A DNA stretch of 64,000 nucleotides from NCBI RefSeq assembly GCF_006345805.1, contig NC_043004.1, positions 59,458,001 to 59,522,000 of the forward strand, written 5' to 3'. Positions within the stretch are counted from its first letter, which is position 1; each line of letters begins with the position of its first letter. This document shows, one piece after another, positions 2,212-64,000 of the stretch. The notes under the pieces were generated by a model that was not told the DNA's origin, made no database searches, and saw only the letters and a program-made list of their open reading frames with translations. This DNA comes from Octopus sinensis (taxonomy: Eukaryota). The translations under genes and the position numbers were made by a program.

Positions 2212-5083
<2,872 letters not shown>

Positions 5084-5085
5084 CA

Positions 5086-5210
5086 GTGAGTGAGAGAGCA
5101 GCGCATGAATCAAAGTGACACTGGGTTACAAATATACAAAGCCCAATACGCCCATTATGACCACCCGTCTAATAAGGTTACACCAGGCACATGCATCACA
5201 ACTATTTGCA
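5086..5210 (-). mobile_element. 3' tail (~125 bp) of the ~550-bp (AAT)n-targeted element, joined to an R4/Dong fragment
   Basis: GAGTGAGAGAGCAG..CAAAGTGACACTGGG..CCCGTCTAATAAGG..CCAGGCACATGCATCACAAC matches 47144-47260. Confidence 0.8.
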
Positions 5211-6810
5211 TTAGTTTTCGTTGCTTCTGATGTAGGCATTTCTGTAGTCATATGGTAGCTATTTTGTAATAGTATTGTAGCTGTATAACGCCTCTACCAC
5301 CTTCGACACGTTGTATATATAACATTTCTACATCAGATTTTGAGTGGTGTATCCTAAATCCTGTCATTATTTTTCTTGTTTTCTTGTCTATTTCGATTAG
5401 TTCATTTAGTGTCTAGCTAAGAATATTGTAGCTGTAACTTATAACTGGGACGGCTAGAGTGTTGATAGCTTGTTTTTCACATTAGGTTGTTTCCAGTATT
5501 AATCTAACTCCTCTGTAGTATTATTTTCCTATCTTCTCTTTCATTTGTGTGTGTTTTATCGTATCTAGTTCATTGATTCCTAAAAATCTGTACGTCTGAA
5601 TTTGGTCTAATTCTCTTATTTCATTTGCTTTTTCTCGTGTGATGCTACTCTTAGCTAGTTTTCCTCTTTTCAGTGTTGCTTCGACACATTTTCTAGTTCA
5701 AATTTCATGTTTATTTCTTTGGTAAAGTCATGTGCTGTCTGTAGTAGTGTTTCTAGCTGTTTATCAGTGTAGCATACAGTTTTAGATCACCCATATATAA
5801 GAGGTTGCTGATTGATTTGCCGTAGCAGTTGTATCCACATCCAGTTATGTTTAGCATGTTAGATAAATGTGTCAGTTGCGAGCAGAAAACGAGTGGAGAG
5901 AGTGTGCCTCACTGGAATATTCCTCCTCTGATGGGGATGGCTTTAGTTTTTATGAATCCCGATTTTGTCTAGCGATGTAGCACTGTCTGACATTTATTCA
6001 TGGAATGCTTTATATATTTTATGATTATTGGTGCTACCTTGTTCATGGCTAGTGTTTCTAGGATCCATGTGTGGGGAATACTATCAAAAGCCTTTCAGTA
6101 ATCGATCCAGGCCGTACTTAGACCCTTCTCCTTTCTGTGGCTGTCTTCTGTTATGGGTATATCGATCAGTAGCTGATCTTTACAACCGTATGAGCACGTG
6201 CAGCGTCCCCTGTGCGCTTCTAGAAACAGTTTGTTTTCTTGCAGATTATTGCTCTTTGTCTGTGATATTATTGCAGTAAAGGATTTGTAAATTGTAGGGA
6301 GATTAGTTTGCGGTCCGTAATTTTGTGGATTTGCCGTTTCAGTAGATCCGAGAATTGAGAATTCCCTTCCGTGAACCATTCAGGCATTGTCCCTAATATT
6401 TCATTGTGCTAGTATTTCATTAAATTCCTCAGTTAGCTTTTTATGTGTCCCTGTTAGGTATTCTAACCAGAAGTTGGAGATCTTGTCGTGCCCAGGTTCC
6501 TTCCAGTTGCTCAGTTTTGGGATGACTTCTTAAGTTGTTATATCGGCCCATAGTTGTTCAGGTACTGTGTTTGTTGTTTTGATAGACCTATTTTGAGGTT
6601 GTTTCTTCTCCGACCAGATTCTTTTCTAAAATTCTTCCACTTGTGCTGCTGTTGGTGCTGCATTGATCTCACTTTTGTCAAGTTCTTGGTAGAATCTTTT
6701 GGGGCTTGAGTTGAACTGTTTGTTTTGTTCAAAGAAACATTGGCGTTTCCCACATCGGTGGATTATTTTGCCTTGTGGAGCTGTTGTTTTACTTCAGGTA
6801 TACCTCAAGT
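5211..6810 (-). mobile_element. Second, more decayed R4/Dong LINE fragment (RT region)
   Basis: Collinear nucleotide similarity to 3300-4430; ORF fragment TANPQNYGPQTNLPTIYKSFT..GCKDQLLID..LSTAWIDY covers RT motifs that are deleted in the first copy. Confidence 0.85.
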
Positions 6811-19106: not shown

Positions 19107-19333
19107 TGTATGTATGTATGTGTTTGTGTGTCTGTGTTTGTCCCCCTAGCATTGCTTGACAACCGATGCTGGTGTGTTTACGTCCCCGTCACTTAGCGGT
19201 TCGGCAAAAGAGACCGATAGAATAAGTACTGGGCTTACAAAGAATAAGTCCCAGGGTCGATTTGCTTGACTAAAGGCGGTGCTCCAGCATGGCCGCAGTC
19301 AAATGACTGAAACATATAAAAGAGTAAAAGAGT
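19036..19333 (+). mobile_element. SINE family A, 5'-truncated
   Basis: Match to 17500-17770. Confidence 0.9.
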
Positions 19334-20356
19334 AGAGAAAGAGATGGCAAAAGAAAAACGAACAAGCAATCTAGCGAGAAAAGTATTAAAAATAACGTAG
19401 CAGATATGGATGTATAAATGCCCTTGGGCATGCTGCATGGCGCGAGTACACACGTTCATATATGCTTCTGTGAAAATGTGCACATACGTATAAACATAGT
19501 TATTTATATGAGATAAGGCATAGTGTGACATTTGGTGTTATTTTTTATACTGATCTATAGAGCGTTGGTGGTTTAAAAGGATCACATTAGTACATGATTG
19601 GCATGAAGAATATTATCTATACCATTGTTATTTATTTCCGTTGATCGAATGTGGTGTTTGTGATTGTCTTAAGATGTTAGTGAACCATTTTGCTTTCGAA
19701 TAGTGTTTTCTATATATCGTTGTGGCTGTTGTAGAGAAATTATAAAGAACTTGTAGTATTTTTGTCTCGCACGACAAGGAATTATTTATCTTCTCTGCTG
19801 GAACCAAGTGTTGAACCATCGAGAAAGATGCAAATTTCTAAGCATTTCTGTTTCTCAACATACTTATTTTTTAGCAATAAATCATGTTATACTTACCATT
19901 GAGTGACTGGTTAAATGGCCGACCTGCAACAATCAACAATTACATCTTGGGTAAAAAAAAAACCCCAAAAGCCCCCAGTAAACTTTTATTGAAATGAGGG
20001 ATTATTTGTTGAAACACAGGAATTCTTTTAACGAGTTGAAGGAAACAAAATTGGGTATTGTCATAGCAAAACAACATGTTTTGCTGGCTTTCTGCTTTTT
20101 CTAAGTGAATGTTGTTAATATCCTTGCATTTAAGATAACGTTAGTCTTAGCTTCACTCTCAATACTAAGGGGTGATCAGGTCATACAATCTTTCTTGTGT
20201 CAGCTTGATCTGAAAGGCATCATTTATGCGCTGTAGTTTGTTGACATATCTCCCTGTTAATGTTACTAACGCGACTGTTATTGCGCTTAACATTTGCATA
20301 CATTTCGAACAAAAAGTCATCGAACATTTATCTTTTTATCGTATTTGTACGTGTCG

Positions 20357-20399
<43 letters not shown>

Positions 20400-21676
20400 G
20401 TATGATGTATGTATGTATGTATGTATGTATGTATGTTGTGTTTGTGTGTCTGTGTTTGTCCCCCTAGCATTGCTTGACAACCGATGCTGGTGTGTTTACG
20501 TCCCCGTCACTTAGCGGTTCGGCAAAAGAGACCGATAGAATAAGTACTGGGCTTACAAAGAATAAGTCCCAGGGTCGATTTGCTTGACTAAAGGCGGTGC
20601 TCCAGCATGGCCGCAGTCAAATGACTGAAACATATAAAAGAGTAAAAGAGTAGAGAAAGAGATGGCAAAAGAAAAACGAACAAGCAATCTAGCGAGAAAA
20701 GTATTAAAAATAACCGTAGCAGATATGGATGTATAAATGCCCTTGGGCATGCTGCATGGCGCGAGTACACACGTTCATATATGCTTCTGTGAAAATGTGC
20801 ACATACGTATAAACATAGTTATTTATATGAGATAAGGCATAGTGTGACATTTGGTGTTATTTTTTATACTGATCTATAGAGCGTTGGTGGTTTAAAAGGA
20901 TCACATTAGTACATGATTGGCATGAAGAATATTATCTATACCATTGTTATTTATTTCCGTTGATCGAATGTGGTGTTTGTGATTGTCTTAAGATGTTAGT
21001 GAACCATTTTGCTTTCGAATAGTGTTTTCTATATATCGTTGTGGCTGTTGTAGAGAAATTATAAAGAACTTGTAGTATTTTTGTCTCGCACGACAAGGAA
21101 TTATTTATCTTCTCTGCTGGAACCAAGTGTTGAACCATCGAGAAAGATGCAAATTTCTAAGCATTTCTGTTTCTCAACATACTTATTTTTTAGCAATAAA
21201 TCATGTTATACTTACCATTGAGTGACTGGTTAAATGGCCGACCTGCAACAATCAACAATTACATCTTGGGTAAAAAAAAAACCCCAAAAGCCCCCAGTAA
21301 ACTTTTATTGAAATGAGGGATTATTTGTTGAAACACAGGAATTCTTTTAACGAGTTGAAGGAAACAAAATTGGGTATTGTCATAGCAAAACAACATGTTT
21401 TGCTGGCTTTCTGCTTTTTCTAAGTGAATGTTGTTAATATCCTTGCATTTAAGAATAACGTTAGTCTTAGCTTCACTCTCAATACTAAGGGGTGATCAGG
21501 TCATACAATCTTTCTTGTGTCAGCTTGATCTGAAAGGCATCATTTATGCGCTGTAGTTTGTTGACATATCTCCCTGTTAATGTTACTAACGCGACTGTTA
21601 TTGCGCTTAACATTTGCATACATTTCGAACAAAAAGTCATCGAACATTTATCTTTTTATCGTATTTGTACGTGTCG

Positions 21677-21734
<58 letters not shown>

Positions 21735-35842: not shown

Positions 35843-36660
35843 ATTAGGTTGTCAAGAAAGTTCTTACGGTTTTCATCCTTTAAATTCAGATGCACAATAT
35901 CTCGGCTCAAAAAAAACTTTATTTATCGAAATAAACACCATCAGAATCAATATACCTTTGCCAACGCGAAACAAGTTTATTTATGCAAGTAGCGTAAAAA
36001 TCCTGCGTTCTGGTGGCGATGAAGTCGTTGAAGGCGTGTTTGCCATCGTCTTGGTTTTTGAAGCATTTCTCACGCAGGAAGATGCTTAAAAAAGGGATAG
36101 TCGCTAGGCGAAAGGACTGGTGAGTATGATGGATGAGGCAGAGATACGTAGCCAGATTCGTTCATCCTCTGCAGGGTCAATTGTGCGACGTGCGGCCGAG
36201 CGTTGTCGTGAAGAAGAATTGGTCCTTTTCTATTGACCAATTGTGGCTGTTGTCGGAGTTTCTTATGCATTTCATCCATTTGCTGACAGTACTTCTCCGC
36301 CGTAATGGTTTCGACTGGATCAAAAAAGCTGTGATAGATGAGACCGGCCGCAGACCACCAAACAGTCACTATGACCCTCTTTTGATGCAACTTTGGCTTC
36401 GGGAAGTTCCGTTGAGCGTCGCCGATTGTCGTAAAGAATCATTACAAATCACAACGCGGTCGATAAACGGGTCGTTCTTGTTGCGTAAAAGAAGGGAAGA
36501 CGACACTTCAAAATGACGTTGTTTTTGTTTGTTGTTCAGTTCGTGCGGCACCCATTTCTCAAGTAGTTTTGTTTTTCCAATCTCTTTCAAGTGTTTGGAA
36601 ATTGTCGTATAATATTTACAGAATACAAACGACGAAGGCAGGTGAGGAAACAACAAGCAA
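35843..36660 (-). mobile_element. Mariner (DD34D) transposon remnant
   Basis: WVPHEL, HQKRVIVTVWWS, ILLHDNARPH, HPSYSPVLSPSDYPFFKHL; terminal TA-TTAGGTTG at ~35842. Confidence 0.93.
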
Positions 36661-39468: not shown

Positions 39469-40418
39469 TAATAAGAAGAGAAGAAGAAGAAGAAGAAGAA
39501 GAAGAAGAAGAAAAAGAAAAAGAAGAAGAAGAAGAAGAAAAAGGAGAAGAGAGTAGCAGTAGCTACACCAGCAACAAGTATAATAACACCAACAGCAGAA
39601 ACAGCAACAACGAATATAATTGCGTGAATGATATCATTAACTAAAAGAAAGATAAGTAAAATGTTTAAATGTCAAATTTGCTAATTTACTTTTGGTATAA
39701 AAGTTTCTAGATTTGATTTTCACCAATGAGAAATCAGATTATTCTAAGAAATCCTCGCGGATATAAAATCTTCTTGAGAGAAAGAATAATACAACATAAA
39801 AAAAACGAAGAAAACAAAAGAAAAGAAAGAAGAAAGAAAGAAGGAAAGAAAGAAAGAAGGAAAGAAAGAAAGAAAAATATATTGTATTTTAATTACGAAG
39901 CGAAAACTACATTTTGAATGGAACGAAACAAACAACATTGGATGTAGTGAATTTGTTTGTGAAAAATATGTGCGTGTATTTATGCTCTCTGTCTTGACCG
40001 ACCACCTACTTTGTAGCAAAGTAGTGGAGGGAAGTATCTTGTTTTAACCATCCTTCGAAATTGAAGAAGAACATGCAGATTTATGCAGTCCCACATATGG
40101 TGATCATTTGTAGAATATATATATATATATATATATAGGGGGGGGGGTATGTAAAATTTCCCCTTATATTTCCACGGGAATTTTTATATTTTTTTTTGTA
40201 ACATATTTCTNNNNNNNNNNNNNNNNNNNNNNNNNNNNNNNNNNNNNNNNNNNNNNNNNNNNNNNNNNNNNNNNNNNNNNNNNNNNNNNNNNNNNNNNNN
40301 NNNNNNNNNNCCTATACAATACTTGATACACCTACAGCATACTGAACCGAGTAATGTTTGGCCAAGAAAGCTGACAGTAAAACTAACCGGAACGAAATAA
40401 TAATAATATATAATAATA

Positions 40419-40458
<40 letters not shown>

Positions 40459-41233
40459 TAATAATAAGAAGAAGAGAAGAAGAAGAAGAAGAAGAAGAGA
40501 AGAAGAAAAGAAAAAGAAGAAGAAGAAGAGAGAAAAGGAGAAGAGAGTAGCAGTAGCAGTAGCTCCCCAGCAACAAGTATTATAATAACACCAAAGCAGA
40601 AACAAGCAACAAACGAATATAATTGCGTGAATGATATCATAATAAAGAAAGATAAGTAAAATGTTTAAATGTCAAATTTGCTATTTACTTTTGGTAGTAA
40701 AAGTTTCTAGATTTGATATTTTCAACAATGAGAAATCAGATGATTCTAAGAAATCCTCGCGGATATAAAATCTTCTTGAGAGAAAGAATAATACAACATA
40801 AAAAAAACGAAGAAAACAAAAGAAAAGAAAAAAGAAAGAAAGAAGAATGGAAAGGACAAGAAGGAAAGAAAGAAAGAAGGAAAGAAAGAAAGAAAAAATA
40901 TTGTATTTTAATTACGAAGCGAAAACTGACATTTGAATGGAACGAAACAAACAACATTGGATGTAGTGAATTTGTTTGTGAAAAATATGTGCGTGTATTT
41001 ATGCTCTCTGTCTCTTGACCGACCACCTACTTTGTAGCAAAGTAGTGGAGGGAAGTATATCTGTTTTTAACCATCCTCGAAATTGAAGAAGAACATGCAG
41101 ATTTATGCAGTCCCACATATGGTGATCCATTGTAGAATATATATATATATAATATATAGGGGGGGGGGGGTATGTAAAATTTCCCCTTATATTTCCACGG
41201 GAATTTTATATTTTCTTTTTGTAACATATTTCT
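39313..41233. other. 100-N scaffold gap (40211-40310) flanked by a ~0.9-kb duplicated sequence
   Basis: 39313-40210 matches 40311-41233; the first copy ends and the second begins exactly at the gap; differences are mostly indels. Confidence 0.95.
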
Positions 41234-45154: not shown

Positions 45155-45915
45155 TGCAGTACCAGGCAGTGGCTCTCATGGCTTCTGATCTTAACTGATT
45201 GGAAGTGCTATCATGTACATTATTTTGTCTTGGTATAAAAGATGGGCTACAGCAAATATTCTGCTCAGTACCACAGATTTGCTTGTCAGCTGTTTGACCA
45301 TAACCAGTTGAGCATTTCCCTTAGTGGCTGACGATATGTGCATCTCTGATCACGAGCAGAAGTAGTGGGGGAGCATCATAGCCATGTGTTGAGAGGGATT
45401 CTTTGGGGTTTGAATAATTCACCTCTGGAAACACGGGTGGTTTTTCAAACATCCTTAAACAACCCTATTCAGGGACCGTTTGAGCAGGATGGGCTACTCA
45501 ACCTGAAGAAAATTCTAACTGGGCTCCACCTGCAAGGTCATGTGCTGTTTATCTTGATATAAGATCACCATGTCGCGCACATATGGTTGTGATGCATGTG
45601 CCTGGTGTACCCTTATCAGACGGGTATTCATGATGGATATATTGGGCTTCGTATATTTTACCCCAGTGTCACTTTGATGGCATGAACTGCTCTCTCACTC
45701 AATAATAATAATAACAACAACAACAACAGCATCGAAAAATATCTTAGGAACGAGAAACCTGATTCGAAATTTCTCCAAGACAACTGAAGAAGGCTGGAGG
45801 GTATATCAGTCGAAATTTTGTGTTAACAACAAACAAGATGAGGACAGATACCAAATATAAATAATGTAAACAATGTAAATAATGTACATAATTCCTCATC
45901 TCTTAAATATAGAAC
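44940..45915 (+). mobile_element. Composite SINE: tRNA-like head + (AAT)n + hammerhead-bearing tail; hosts a nested insertion at 45154-45700
   Basis: Box A TGGCGTAGTGG, box B GAGTTCGATTCC; HHR motif at 45779-45824; TSD TAAGAAAATCTTT at 44927-44939 and 45916-45928. Confidence 0.85.
45154..45700 (+). mobile_element. ~550-bp non-coding element inserted in (AAT)n
   Basis: High similarity to 47144-47698 (-) and 57848-58399 (+); (AAT)n on both sides. Confidence 0.92.
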
Positions 45916-47099: not shown

Positions 47100-47143
<44 letters not shown>

Positions 47144-47697
47144 GAGTGAGAGAGCCGTGCATGCCATCAAAGTGACACTGGGGTAAAATACACGAAGCCC
47201 AATATACCCATCATGACTACCCGTCTGATAAGGGTACACTAGGCACATGCATCACAACCATATGTGCGCGACATGGTGATCTCATATCAAGATAAACAGC
47301 ACATGACCTTGCAGGTGGGGCCCAGTTAGAATTTTCTTCAGGTTCAGTAGCCCATCCCGCTCATAAGGTCCCTGAATAAGGATTGTTTAAGGATGTTGAA
47401 AGAACCACCCATGTTTCCAGAGGTGAACTATTCAAGCCCCAAAGAATCCCTCTCAACACATGGCTATGATGCTCCCCCACTACTTCTGCTTGTGATCAGA
47501 GATGCACGTATTATCAGCCACTAAGGGACATGCTCAACTGGTTAAGGTCAAACAACTGACAAGCAAATCTGTGGTATTGAGCAGAATATTTGCTGTAGCC
47601 CATCTTTTATACCAAGACAAAACAATGCACATGATAACACTTCCAATCAGTTAAGATCAGAAACTATGAAAGCCACTGCCTGGTACTGCATCAGGGC

Positions 47698-50863: not shown

Positions 50864-51159
50864 CAGGTTTATATTTAAGAGATGAGGAATTTACATTATT
50901 TACATTTGACAGATATTTGTCCTCATATTTTTGTTGTTAACACAACGTTTCGGCTAATATACCCTCCAGCCTTCACCAGGTGTCTTGGGAAAATTTCAAA
51001 CCTGGGTTCTCATTCCTAAGGTATTTTTCGATGTTGATGTTGTTGTTGTTGGTGTTTCTATAGCTTTTTTAGAGAAATCTTGTCATCTACTGGTACTACT
51101 ACATCAATTAGAAAGCATTCTTCTTCTTCTTCGTCTTCTTCTTCTTATTATTATTATTA

Positions 51160-51338: not shown

Positions 51339-51410
<72 letters not shown>

Positions 51411-51557
51411 AGCAACAACATCGAAAAATACCTTAGGAATGAGAACCAAGGTTCGAAATTTCCCCACGACACCTGATGAATGCTGGGGGCTATGTCAGCC
51501 GAAAGGTTGTGTTAACACCAAAAAAGATGAGGACAACTCATCAAATATAAATAATGT
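50864..51557. mobile_element. Head-to-head pair of the tRNA-head/HHR-tail SINE: full copy on - (50864-51312) plus inverted partial copy on + (51313-51557)
   Basis: tRNA-like head at 51238-51312 (-); HHR motifs at 50939-50984 (-) and 51468-51513 (+); TSD AAGAAAAGTATTC at 50851-50863 and 51558-51570. Confidence 0.85.
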
Positions 51558-51565
51558 AAGAAAAG

Positions 51566-52310
51566 TATTCTTTACTACCCTAAGCACAAGGTCCGAAATT
51601 TGGGGTGGGTGAGCAGGGGGCCAGTCGATTAGATCGAAACCAGTACACAACTAGTAGCTAATTTATCGACTCCGAAGGGATGAAAGCAAAGTCGACCTCA
51701 GCGGAATTTGAACTCAGAACGTAAAGACAGACGAACTACCTATTTATTTACTATCCACAAGGATCTAAACACAGAGAGGACAAACAAGGACAGACAAACG
51801 GATTTAGTCGATTATATCGACCCCACTGCGTAACTGGTACTTATTTAATCGACCCCGAAAGGATGAAAGGCAAAGTCGACCTCAGTGGAATTTGAACTCA
51901 GAACGTAGCGGCAGACGAATTACCGATAAGCATTTCACCAGGCGTGCTAACGTTTCGTATTTCTTTTTTGCACACAAGGGGCTAACCATAAAGGGGACAA
52001 ACAAGGAGAGACAAACGGATTAAGTAGATTATATCGACCCCAGCGTGGAACTGGTACATAATTTATCGACCCCGAAAAGATGAAAGGCAAAGTCGACCTC
52101 GGCGTAATTTGAACTCAGAACGTAGCGGCAGACGAAATACCTATTTCTTTACTACCCATAAGGGGCTAAACACAGAGGGGACAAACAAGGACAGACAAAC
52201 GGATTAAGTCGATTATATCGACCCAAGTGCGACTCAGAACGTAGTGGCAGACGATATACCGCTAAGCACTTCGTTCGGCGTGCTAACGTTTCAGGCAGCT
52301 CCCCACCTTT
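51566..52310 (-). mobile_element. Array of four nested/tandem SINE family B copies
   Basis: ACTCAGAACGTA..CAGACGA occurs four times (~51712, 51896, 52113, 52232); units ~51566-51740, 51741-51956, 51957-52141, 52142-52310. Confidence 0.9.
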
Positions 52311-53247: not shown

Positions 53248-54129
53248 AATTTAAAATTAAGGATTTTATAAGAAATTATCAGTAGTTAGCGTGAAAAACC
53301 TCGTAAGAGAAAAAAATCTGTAAATTTTTCCACTTTGAAAATATTTATTTATATTATATAGAGGGTACTATTATTCATAGGTAGCGCACGCTAGGAGGGA
53401 CTTTTGCAGTCAAAACTACTAAAATAAACAAATTGCACTGAATGCAAAACTTCAAAGCAAGTCATTTAAAAGCGGAATTTAGTTACATATCACCTGTGAT
53501 TTCGCAATCAATGCAGAATATGCATTCTATGCTCTTCAGTGCAACGAACTCAAGACATATAAGAAAAAACACAACATCACAAACCCGACAGCCAACCGTA
53601 GAATTCGCCTAGCGTGCGGTACCTATGAATAATATAGTACCCTCTATATAATATAAATAAATATTTTCAAATTGGAAAAATTTACAGTTGTTTTTTCTTA
53701 CGAGGTTTTTCACGCTAACTACTGATAATTTCTTATAAAGATTTTATCCTTAATTTTAAATTTATATTTTTCACCGGAATTGTTCAATACTGAATTTTTG
53801 TTCCGAGTAGGCAAGTTGGTACCGAAATGCATTGCGAATAAGTCCGCCATTTTCATAGATATGTAAAGATAAACATTCGTACATGGTGCGGCGAATTCTA
53901 CGGTTGACTGTCGGGTTTGTAATGTTGTGTTTTATCTTGAGTTCGTTGCGCTGAAGAGCATAGAATGCATATTCTGCATTGATTTCGAAATCACAGGTGA
54001 GATGTAACTACATTCCGTTTTTAAATGACTTGCTTTGAAGTTTTTCATTCGGTACAATTTGTTTATTTTAGTAGTTTTGACTGCAAAAGTCCCTCCTAGC
54101 GTGCGGTACCTATGAATAATAGTACCCTC

Positions 54130-54137
<8 letters not shown>
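53246..54137. mobile_element. HHR-containing repeat: ~487-bp monomer with terminal direct repeat (53608-54137, +) preceded by an inverted partial copy (53246-53609, -)
   Basis: CCTAGCGTGCGGTACCTATGAATAAT at 53608 and 54095; 53246-53609 is the reverse complement of parts of the monomer; flanked by (TA)n. Confidence 0.85.
53482..53545 (-). ncRNA. Type I hammerhead ribozyme, intact core
   Basis: GUUGCA-CUGAAGA-GCA..UGC-GAAA-UCAC(AG)GUGA-UA^-UGUAAC; the + strand copy at 53945-54008 has lost U16.1 and one stem II pair. Confidence 0.8.
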
Positions 54138-54168
<31 letters not shown>

Positions 54169-57848: not shown

Positions 57849-58399
57849 CCTGAAGCAGTACCAGGCAGTGGCTCTCATGACTTCTGATCTGAACTGATTG
57901 GAAGTGTTATCATGTACATTGTTTTGCCTTGGTATAAAAGATGGGCTACAGTAAATATTCTGCTCAATACCAGAGACTTGCTTGTGAGTTGTTTGGCCTT
58001 AATCAGTTGAGTATGTCCCTTAGTGGCTGACGATATGTGCATCTCTGATCACGAGCAGAAGTAGTGGGGGAGCATCATAGCCATGTGTTGAGAAGGATTC
58101 TTTGGGGTTTGAATAAATCACCTCTGGGAACATGGGTGTTTTGTTCAACATCCTTAACCAACCCTTATCCAGGGACCTTTTGAGCAGGATGGGCTACTTG
58201 ACCAGAAGAAAATTCTAACTGGGCCCCACCTGCAAGGTCATGTTTTGTTTATCTTGATATGAGATCACCATGTCGCGCACACATGGTTGTAATGCATGTG
58301 CCTGGTGTACCTTTATCAGACGGGTAGTCATGATGGGTATACTGGGCTTCGTATATATACCCCAGTGTCACTTTGATGGCATGCACTGCCTTTTCACTC
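57848..58399 (+). mobile_element. ~550-bp (AAT)n-targeted element, full length
   Basis: Collinear with 45154-45700; (AAT)n flanks. Confidence 0.92.
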
Positions 58400-58444
58400 A
58401 ATAATAATAATAATAATTATAATAATAATTAACAATAATAATAA

Positions 58445-60250: not shown

Positions 60251-60294
<44 letters not shown>

Positions 60295-60445
60295 AAGCAA
60301 TTAAGATTCAAGTAAATTCCAATGAATTTACTTGAATTTGGTACTTAACTTAGATGCACCAGAAAAACTATATGGTGTTATCCATACAGTAAGTGGGGGG
60401 TGATTATAAACGAAAGAAGACAAGAAGCAACAAGAATGGATTAGT

Positions 60446-60536
60446 TTTTAGTACAATTGTTTCATACAAAGACAGGCTTTATTACAAGTTGCAAAAATTG
60501 CAGCAGATAAAAGTATCCCGTACTCATCAGCTAAAA
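60446..60536 (-). ncRNA. Type I hammerhead ribozyme, intact core
   Basis: UUUUAG-CUGAUGA-GUAC..GUAU-GAAA-CAAUUG-UA^-CUAAAA; palindromic stem III. Confidence 0.78.
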
Positions 60537-60818
60537 TACATTTGAGTTCTCTAGACATCTTAGTGGGTGAGGTTATACTCATGAAATATTGGAGATAGTT
60601 CCATTAGAGGCAGCAGATATAGGTTGTAAACAGTTTTCAAAGTTCCTTAATGATGATGGACAGTCTTATCACAGATTTTTAAAAAACTTATTAGTTTCGA
60701 AGAGAAGAAATCAATCCATAGTGTAGATTTAAATTTCCAGAGATATGAGGAGGATGATGCACAGACTTATCACAGGTTTTTAAAGACTTATTAGCTTCAC
60801 ATATATATATACATATAT

Positions 60819-63100: not shown

Positions 63101-63163
<63 letters not shown>

Positions 63164-63172
63164 GTATATATG

Positions 63173-63219
<47 letters not shown>

Positions 63220-63239
63220 ATATATTATATATATATATA

Positions 63240-64000
63240 GTAATACTAAGTAATTAAGGGTTTAGCAACGATTTGCCTCACCACACACCGAATTTAGAAA
63301 TAGCAGTTAAAGAGTTATAGCCTTTATTTCTACTAAAAGGGAGATCTCAGTAAAACCACAGCACTTGAAAGGCAAACACACACAGGCAAGAGAGAAAGAA
63401 ATGACGGCAATCTATCCTACAATTTTAAGTCACCTACGGACGTACGTTTCGAAATTAAGTTTTAGGAAAGCATAAGAATTAGATAATCATGTCTTACACA
63501 ACTTCTTTTCTCATCAGCGTAGGACACTACAATTATGAATAATTGTATATTAAATTTCGAGGTACTAGAAGGCATCATCTCAACTCAGTATCAGAGCGAG
63601 CAAAAGCCGTTACCAGTATCACCAAATTCAAAGTGTGAATGAAAGTCTGTGTCACCAACCCCTTCCCACCAGCGTGTAGCCAAGACAATATGTTGTGGTC
63701 ATTTACTTGGATGAAATATGGTTATCAGTAATAATATAGGGTGAAATTAATTAATTTGGAATAATCATTAATTTCACCATTCAAGGAAAGTTTAAGTAAT
63801 ACTAAGTAATTAAGGGTTTAGCAAAGATTTGCCTCACCACACACCGAATTTAGAAATAGCAGTCAAAGAGTTATAGCCTTTCTTTCTACTAAAAGGGAGA
63901 TCTCAGTAAAACCACAGCACTTGAAAGGCAAACACACACAGGCAAGAGAGAAAGAAATGACGGTAATCTATCCTACAATTTTAAGTCACCTACGGACGTA
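63240..64000 (-). mobile_element. Tandem ~556-bp repeat with one hammerhead per unit (runs off the window end)
   Basis: GTAATACTAAGTAATTAAGGGTTTAGCAA at 63240 and 63796; the units are nearly identical over the ~205 bp visible twice. Confidence 0.9.
63433..63523 (-). ncRNA. Type I hammerhead ribozyme, intact core, GUC cleavage site
   Basis: CCUACG-CUGAUGA-GAAA..UUUC-GAAA-CGUACG-UC^-CGUAGG. Confidence 0.87.

Follow-up and report, generated by a model that had tools for sequence, protein, structure and literature searches.

The last 761 bases of the 64,000-nucleotide stretch of Octopus sinensis DNA analysed here (contig NC_043004.1, positions 59,458,001 to 59,522,000; hereafter the window) form a direct repeat with a period of 556 bp that carries a hammerhead motif. 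In our judgement, this repeat is quite likely a non-autonomous derivative of a Penelope-like element (PLE), i.e. a non-LTR retrozyme, which obtains its reverse transcriptase (RT) and nuclease from a TA-targeting helper. Going by its sequence features it probably belongs among the metazoan non-LTR retrozymes, and by analogy the helper enzyme probably stems from the Hydra clade. For the whole chain of the mechanism proposed below, circle included, our confidence is lower, and we lean only slightly towards it. The original prediction had called the repeat retrozyme-like, and its anatomy bears this out, with head-to-tail, non-coding and AT-rich units, a type I hammerhead, a palindromic helix III and a joint that recurs in other copies. 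However, the contrast drawn there between a retrozyme and a PLE pLTR turned out to be largely a false choice, as the family has PLE-like insertion marks and a derivation of retrozymes from PLEs has been argued in print.

The window is AT-rich, microsatellite-laden eukaryotic DNA, and the repeat lies at its very end, with 1.37 units inside. Unit 1 (63240..63795, minus strand), as delimited by repeat comparison and an ORF scan, is a complete non-coding unit of 556 bp with its 3’ terminus at 63240. Of unit 2 (63796..64000, minus strand), the 3’ 205 bp are present, and the window edge cuts it inside helix III of its hammerhead, which leaves the hammerhead of unit 1 as the single complete one in view. 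Positions 63240-63444 and 63796-64000 are identical at 201 of 205 bases, and these four mismatches agree with the period and the very few differences reported originally. The reported absence of an ORF held as well: in a six-frame search of 63240-64000, the longest stop-free stretch amounted to 59 codons. Being non-coding, with a GC content of 35.6%, the unit resembles metazoan non-LTR retrozymes, for which GC lies below 45-50%, and the head-to-tail arrangement of 63240-64000 is likewise the one expected of them. No pol III boxes were found in the unit, and we saw no sign of a host function for the 556-bp locus, which is one of very many copies.

The hammerhead of unit 1 (63433..63523, minus strand) is a complete type I motif with every core position intact, three helices and helix I open, and its predicted cut lies between 63439 and 63438. 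Read along the minus strand, the 5’ strand of a 6-bp helix I (63523-63518) is followed by the CUGAUGA core (63517-63511), a helix II domain of 60 nt closed by GAAA/UUUC (63510-63451), the GAA of the core (63450-63448), the palindromic helix III ACGUACGU (63447-63440), C17 of the GUC site (63439) and the 3’ strand of helix I (63438-63433). The closing pair G10.1-C11.1 is present as G63510-C63451. Of the second hammerhead, which had correctly been described as severed, the 3’ 12 nt remain (64000-63989, minus strand), with a predicted cut between 63995 and 63994. A strict hammerhead descriptor was passed by none of 3000 dinucleotide shuffles of the unit and had no match in 30 window shuffles, and a relaxed version gave three matches, where 100 block shuffles averaged 0.04; both descriptors were written for this analysis from the established consensus, after the motif had been seen. 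As such, the complete minus-strand type I hammerhead of the original prediction, with its core, helices and GUC site, is upheld.

The word ‘textbook’ that accompanied it is not. Helix II spans 60 nt, with 52 nt between the two strands of its base, and a search of Rfam returned no hammerhead match at gathering and none among the four matches at E<=10, a miss of which the long helix II is the likely cause. The enlarged helix (63451..63510, minus strand) is predicted to consist of a 4-bp base, a 2x2 loop and an irregular 13-bp hairpin with an 8-nt bulge. With regard to a loop 1-loop 2 tertiary contact, helix I extends past a 2x2 loop, helix II has its own 2x2 loop after 4 bp, and a terminal loop 2 is absent from its usual place. 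In the minimal hammerhead descriptor given in the supplement of PMC4209133, stems may have 3-7 bp and the loop 3-10 nt, with a maximum of 24 nt, and a core-only search reported in PMC8557442 was run with a spacer of 7-17 nt. The predicted long-armed hammerhead at 63433..63523 thus falls outside these published search patterns.

The 556-bp unit belongs to a high-copy family of related copies. Of 24 listed public sequencing runs (four organism labels, ten studies), 20 contain part of the unit, none of them half of its words. Contig-by-contig comparison with the unit, carried out for four of the 24 (among them those labelled X8, X5 and X1), gave 1730, 1429, 82 and 203 matching contigs, at identities from more than 99% to under 90%. 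The ‘young’ age originally proposed therefore suits the duplication, with its 2% divergence, but not the family. Summed depths reach up to 10^6 in runs guessed to be DNA, although copy number is not readable from such depth. None of the runs that contain part of the unit is listed as RNA. Contigs of two runs guessed to be RNA reach 29 of the 30 bins; as this label is a guess and the contigs come without ends or strand, these runs were given no weight either way on expression. No common start or end place was found. Among the variant places listed (40 of 87), six and two insertions fall in helix II and none in the core, and on these sequences helix II is the variable part of the predicted ribozyme within the family. 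The 38 variant places listed all lie outside the 31 positions of the core, helix I and helix III, which is not significant (P = 0.105). A change at 11.3 (63453) is seen in all four runs and a partner change in one loose end; the two are not phased, and together they may represent a compensatory change from A-U to G-C at pair 10.3/11.3. As a separate observation on 63497-63434 (minus strand), the majority letter of the family at 63498 gives the start of helix II a good match to a 5’ splice site, and the same stretch contains a branch-point-like pentamer. An intron inside helix II was considered and dropped, since no skip joint occurs among the family contigs.

The marks left at the 3’ end of the unit resemble those of PLE insertion. 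In print, PLEs are characterised by partial tandems, 5’ truncation, tails, microsatellite targets and non-autonomous head-to-tail multicopies (PMC8557442). The repeat starts exactly at the end of a (TA)n microsatellite of 125 bp with 64 copies of TA (63115..63239), which adjoins the 3’ end of the element and was presumably its insertion target. TA-only loose ends before 63243 in three X8 contigs indicate that further copies have their 3’ end at this point too, and a partial tandem with a fixed 3’ end in a microsatellite is what characterises PLEs, non-autonomous ones included. Furthermore, summed depth is highest at the 3’ end (63259-63315) in all four runs, as 5’ truncation would predict, with the proviso that contig depth is not copy number. 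There is also a hint of a Penelope-type tail in the form of a possible second 3’ end about 94 nt further on. Among the loose ends listed (24 of 213), TA-starting ones lie before 63727 (one contig) and 63729 (two contigs), in X8 only of the four runs, and the termini at 63796 and about 63728 begin with the same six letters. The weak candidate tail between these termini (63728..63795, minus strand) is 68 nt here and about 94 nt in the family, longer than the 30-40 bp given for PLE tails in print. A predicted 16-bp AT-rich hairpin (63741..63779, minus strand, -13.5 kcal/mol) is located 13 nt before the candidate second terminus.

Three more hammerhead families, unrelated in sequence, were observed in the window. 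The first is an element between two (TA)n tracts (60292-60800, minus strand) whose type I motif has its core at 60530. Its helix II measures exactly 60 nt and is closed by a G-U pair, and helix III is again palindromic. A hairpin of 14 bp lies 14 nt ahead of the TA tract, and the 5’ end of the element contains an internal direct repeat of 47 bp. Next is an inverted pair, 92% alike, in (TA)n (53248-54149, both strands), with a 29-nt helix II and a 5-bp helix III, of which the plus-strand copy (core at 53951) is altered at 11.2 and 16.1; such an inverted layout is known from PLE insertions. The remaining family consists of three decayed copies beside (TAA)n/(CAA)n, at 45701-45911 (+), 51390-51567 (+) and 50870-51050 (-). 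Their hammerheads, located at 45784, about 51470 and about 50980, are of the minimal PLE type, with an extra base after A9, a 5-bp helix II and no helix III. That all three reside in microsatellites of the window, one of them with a PLE-type inversion, we count in favour of reading the terminal repeat as a PLE derivative.

Several other repeats share the window. An element of about 560 bp with (TAA)n flanks is present in three copies that are 91-93% alike, at 45155-45726 (+), 47118-47690 (-) and 57855-58416 (+); no hammerhead was found in it by the descriptors used here, and its TAA-targeting hints at a Dong-R4-related passenger. Remnants of other transposable elements are located at 2558-4030 (-), 5202-5968 and 36070-36438 (-), namely a broken RT of the LINE type (RVT_1, zf-RVT), accompanied by a second copy at 80%, and part of a mariner-type transposase. 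A search with an RT fragment yielded no named relative that was close. A 1.2-kb tandem duplication with 99.8% identity occupies 19142-21683, and a 1-kb duplication surrounds a 100-N gap (40211-40310) at 39553-41207; both are possible assembly artefacts.

How might such a unit multiply? In the mechanism that we propose, read-through transcription of the minus strand would yield a multimer, in which the palindromic helices III of two adjacent hammerheads would pair into a duplex of 8 bp (-9.8 kcal/mol, computed), followed by cleavage after GUC. A dimer route via helix III has been described for animal hammerheads (PMC4209133). Cleavage would release unit-length RNA, 556 nt here and about 582 nt in the family, and a host RtcB-type ligase could then close it into a circle. 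Retrozyme circles have been shown in coral, mussel and axolotl, and the mussel and axolotl retrozymes are ligated by RtcB in vitro (PMC7229834). The helper would nick (TA)n and begin reverse transcription internally, at the 63240 site of the RNA, with an alternative start about 94 nt further on giving rise to the tail, much as the tail of an anole PLE has been attributed to RT starting from two internal sites at AT-rich nicks (PMC11167929). The likeliest helper is of the Hydra clade, where 26 of the 27 listed families target (TA)n and canonical hammerheads sit on the sense strand near the 3’ end (PMC8557442). By going more than one round on its template, the RT would produce head-to-tail copies of one donor, together with many 5’-truncated singles. 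It should be noted that a circle closed at the cleavage site would have the same sequence as the tandem joint, and therefore divergent RT-PCR alone would not prove its existence.

Several results speak against the cleavage step. It is conceivable, albeit unlikely, that the same non-autonomous PLE derivative carries its hammerhead as a slow or idle passenger, in which case the linear read-through multimer would be the template and the circle irrelevant. An anole PLE inserts from uncleaved RNA, its hammerhead needs protein, and hammerhead mutants of it are not impaired in insertion (PMC11167929); among predicted Xenopus retrozyme dimers, eight of nine stayed uncut in vitro (10.64898/2026.07.22.740005). 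Both observations count against cleavage. So do the folding predictions for the ribozyme-dependent chain as a whole: in the equilibrium fold of all 761 nt, the probabilities of helices I and II are 0.09-0.10 and 0.04, and within a predicted 556-nt circle, forcing the ribozyme costs 6.5 kcal/mol. The other three families in the window, moreover, have changes in the core or closing pair in several copies. Conversely, all core positions of unit 1 are intact, helices I and II are part of the MFE structure in a local context of 141 nt, where the full ribozyme fold costs 3.2 kcal/mol more, and the unphased change at pair 10.3/11.3 in family contigs is possibly compensatory. The unit itself folds somewhat better than its shuffles, with a z of -3.28 for the linear form (0/100 shuffles as good) and of -2.04 for the predicted circle (0/60 shuffles), which would be 60% paired, a modest version of the self-pairing expected of a retrozyme.

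Since the window ends inside the element, the stretch might instead belong to an autonomous PLE, as its 3’ end (pLTR region), with the ORF beyond 64000. We regard this as rather improbable. Hydra-clade PLEs do share the layout of a hammerhead near the 3’ end and (TA)n (PMC8557442), but the two hammerheads here are 556 nt apart without a coding remnant between them, and other copies, too, have a joint that leads back to 63240, as 63779 to 63240 in two X8 contigs and as 63761 to 63240 in one X1 contig. Behind 63779, sequence departs from the window in all four runs (8, 27, 1 and 4 contigs). The X5 consensus of this loose end finishes with the six letters of window 63777-63782, from which we infer that family copies rejoin the unit after about 26-27 extra bases at 63779..63780 and that the family unit measures about 582 bp. 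Thus, the unit length of ~556 bp originally given holds for the period of this locus, but other copies in the family appear to have about 26 bases more at 63779/63780. Among the 24 of 213 loose ends listed, this is the sole one common to the four runs, and it would rejoin the unit; the X1 loose end at 63779 differs from that of X5 in its last letters and may lead elsewhere.

The ORF with RT and GIY-YIG nuclease that defines an autonomous PLE is present neither in the unit nor in the window. None of 52 scanned ORFs matches the GIY-YIG family (the window total is 106, the rest being mostly microsatellite frames), and a six-frame pattern scan of the window found no PLE nuclease remnant. Six short motifs of the unit gave no match in the consensus files of PMC8557442, in which line breaks may hide matches; these files hold the six Hydra consensi novel to that study and leave out those of Repbase, and the 3’ end of Hydra-1_Obim is represented by a motif table. 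Naiads target (TA)n too and are without canonical hammerheads, with a ‘half-core’ noted for two cephalopod families (PMC8557442). We rejected Naiad as the helper, as the 3’ ends of Naiad_Obim and Naiad_Ovul, compared by eye and by motif search in the available consensi, bear no likeness to the unit. A Poseidon-type ORF from the AUG of the hammerhead core was likewise discarded, because it stops after six codons. An 18-mer scan of the unit gave no matches in viral contigs or in prokaryote genomes, and four exact 18-mer matches in metagenome contigs were set aside as chance, having no hammerhead context and no further likeness.

The two units also record where they came from. At three places (63322, 63323 and 63417) both units have the window letter, although 96% or more of the depth in each of the four runs differs from it; unit 1 alone departs from the family at 63308 and 63326. 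Since the two units have in common letters that the family hardly ever shows, they come from one donor, copied twice in the family register. These shared private letters, and the other near-perfect tandem duplications in the window (19142-21683, 99.8%), would also suit a dispersed SINE-like monomer that DNA recombination duplicated on the spot, or a duplication introduced by the assembly. This is very improbable, given the four differences between the units in 205 bases, of which each unit apparently has two of its own, the exact family register and the presence of the same joint in other runs.

For the PLE derivative that we favour, the novelty lies in a helix II that is oversized in two unrelated families, and in a retrozyme-like unit that bears insertion marks of the PLE type. 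The case for animal retrozymes being non-autonomous derivatives of PLEs has been made in print before (10.64898/2026.07.22.740005). We found no description of long-helix-II retrozymes in the literature; Repbase/Dfam, Lunse et al. 2017 and the supplements of PMC7229834, PMC4209133 and 10.64898/2026.07.22.740005 could contain cases. PLEs as the mobilisers of animal retrozymes are a proposal so far, and a family that ends at a fixed point beside (TA)n, has a terminal hairpin and may have a tail offers a concrete substrate for a TA-targeting PLE enzyme. Furthermore, a helix II of this length implies that descriptor-based censuses, with loop 2 of up to 10 nt, undercount hammerheads in such genomes. 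Speculatively, and with more doubt than belief on our part, this genome may harbour a radiation of (TA)n-targeting retrozymes with a helix II of ~60 nt, missed by Rfam and published descriptors, in which a hairpin 13-14 nt before the 3’ end is the RT start signal for a Hydra-clade helper. As two sequence-unrelated families in the window share both features, a large hidden class of animal ribozymes may exist. If true, the first traceable pair of helper and retrozyme may be readable from this genome.

Compared with known systems, the repeat stands closest in anatomy to the metazoan non-LTR retrozymes described in PMC7229834 and 10.64898/2026.07.22.740005. These are likewise head-to-tail, non-coding, low-GC units, with a type I hammerhead that has a 6-bp helix I, a 4-bp helix II base and a short palindromic helix III; they too occur as dispersed monomers and multimers, with a PLE proposed as helper. 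The unit size of 150-450 bp given in 2020 (PMC7229834) does not accommodate 556 or about 582 bp, whereas the range of 51-972 bp given in 2026 (10.64898/2026.07.22.740005) includes 556 bp, and we do not take size as excluding membership. Of the two complete hammerheads expected in a retrozyme, the window contains one, its edge severing the other. Unlike the metazoan retrozymes described, the repeat has a 52-nt insert in helix II. For its (TA)n-abutting 3’ end and possible tail, no counterpart among retrozymes was found in the portions of these two sources available to us.

Hydra-clade PLEs, Hydra-1_Obim included, are alike in their (TA)n target, a type I hammerhead near the 3’ end and a helix III of 3-4 bp, but their listed hammerheads have loops 2 of 3-10 nt, and the repeat is without an ORF (PMC8557442). 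Non-autonomous Chlamys elements such as MRC1 are also PLE derivatives, present as head-to-tail multicopies in microsatellites and with pLTRs; they differ in being algal and, for most, in the absence of a canonical hammerhead (PMC8557442). Precedent for a long helix II comes from the Selaginella PLEs PLE-X1_sMoe and PLE-X1_sTam (File S2 of PMC8557442), whose type I hammerheads have loops 2 of 28 and 35 nt, the helix II of PLE-X1_sMoe spanning 53 nt. These belong to autonomous, 28S-targeting plant elements, and are marked there as deviating from the canonical structure. In contrast, the repeat described here combines its long helix II with an intact core, in a non-coding repeat of the animal type.
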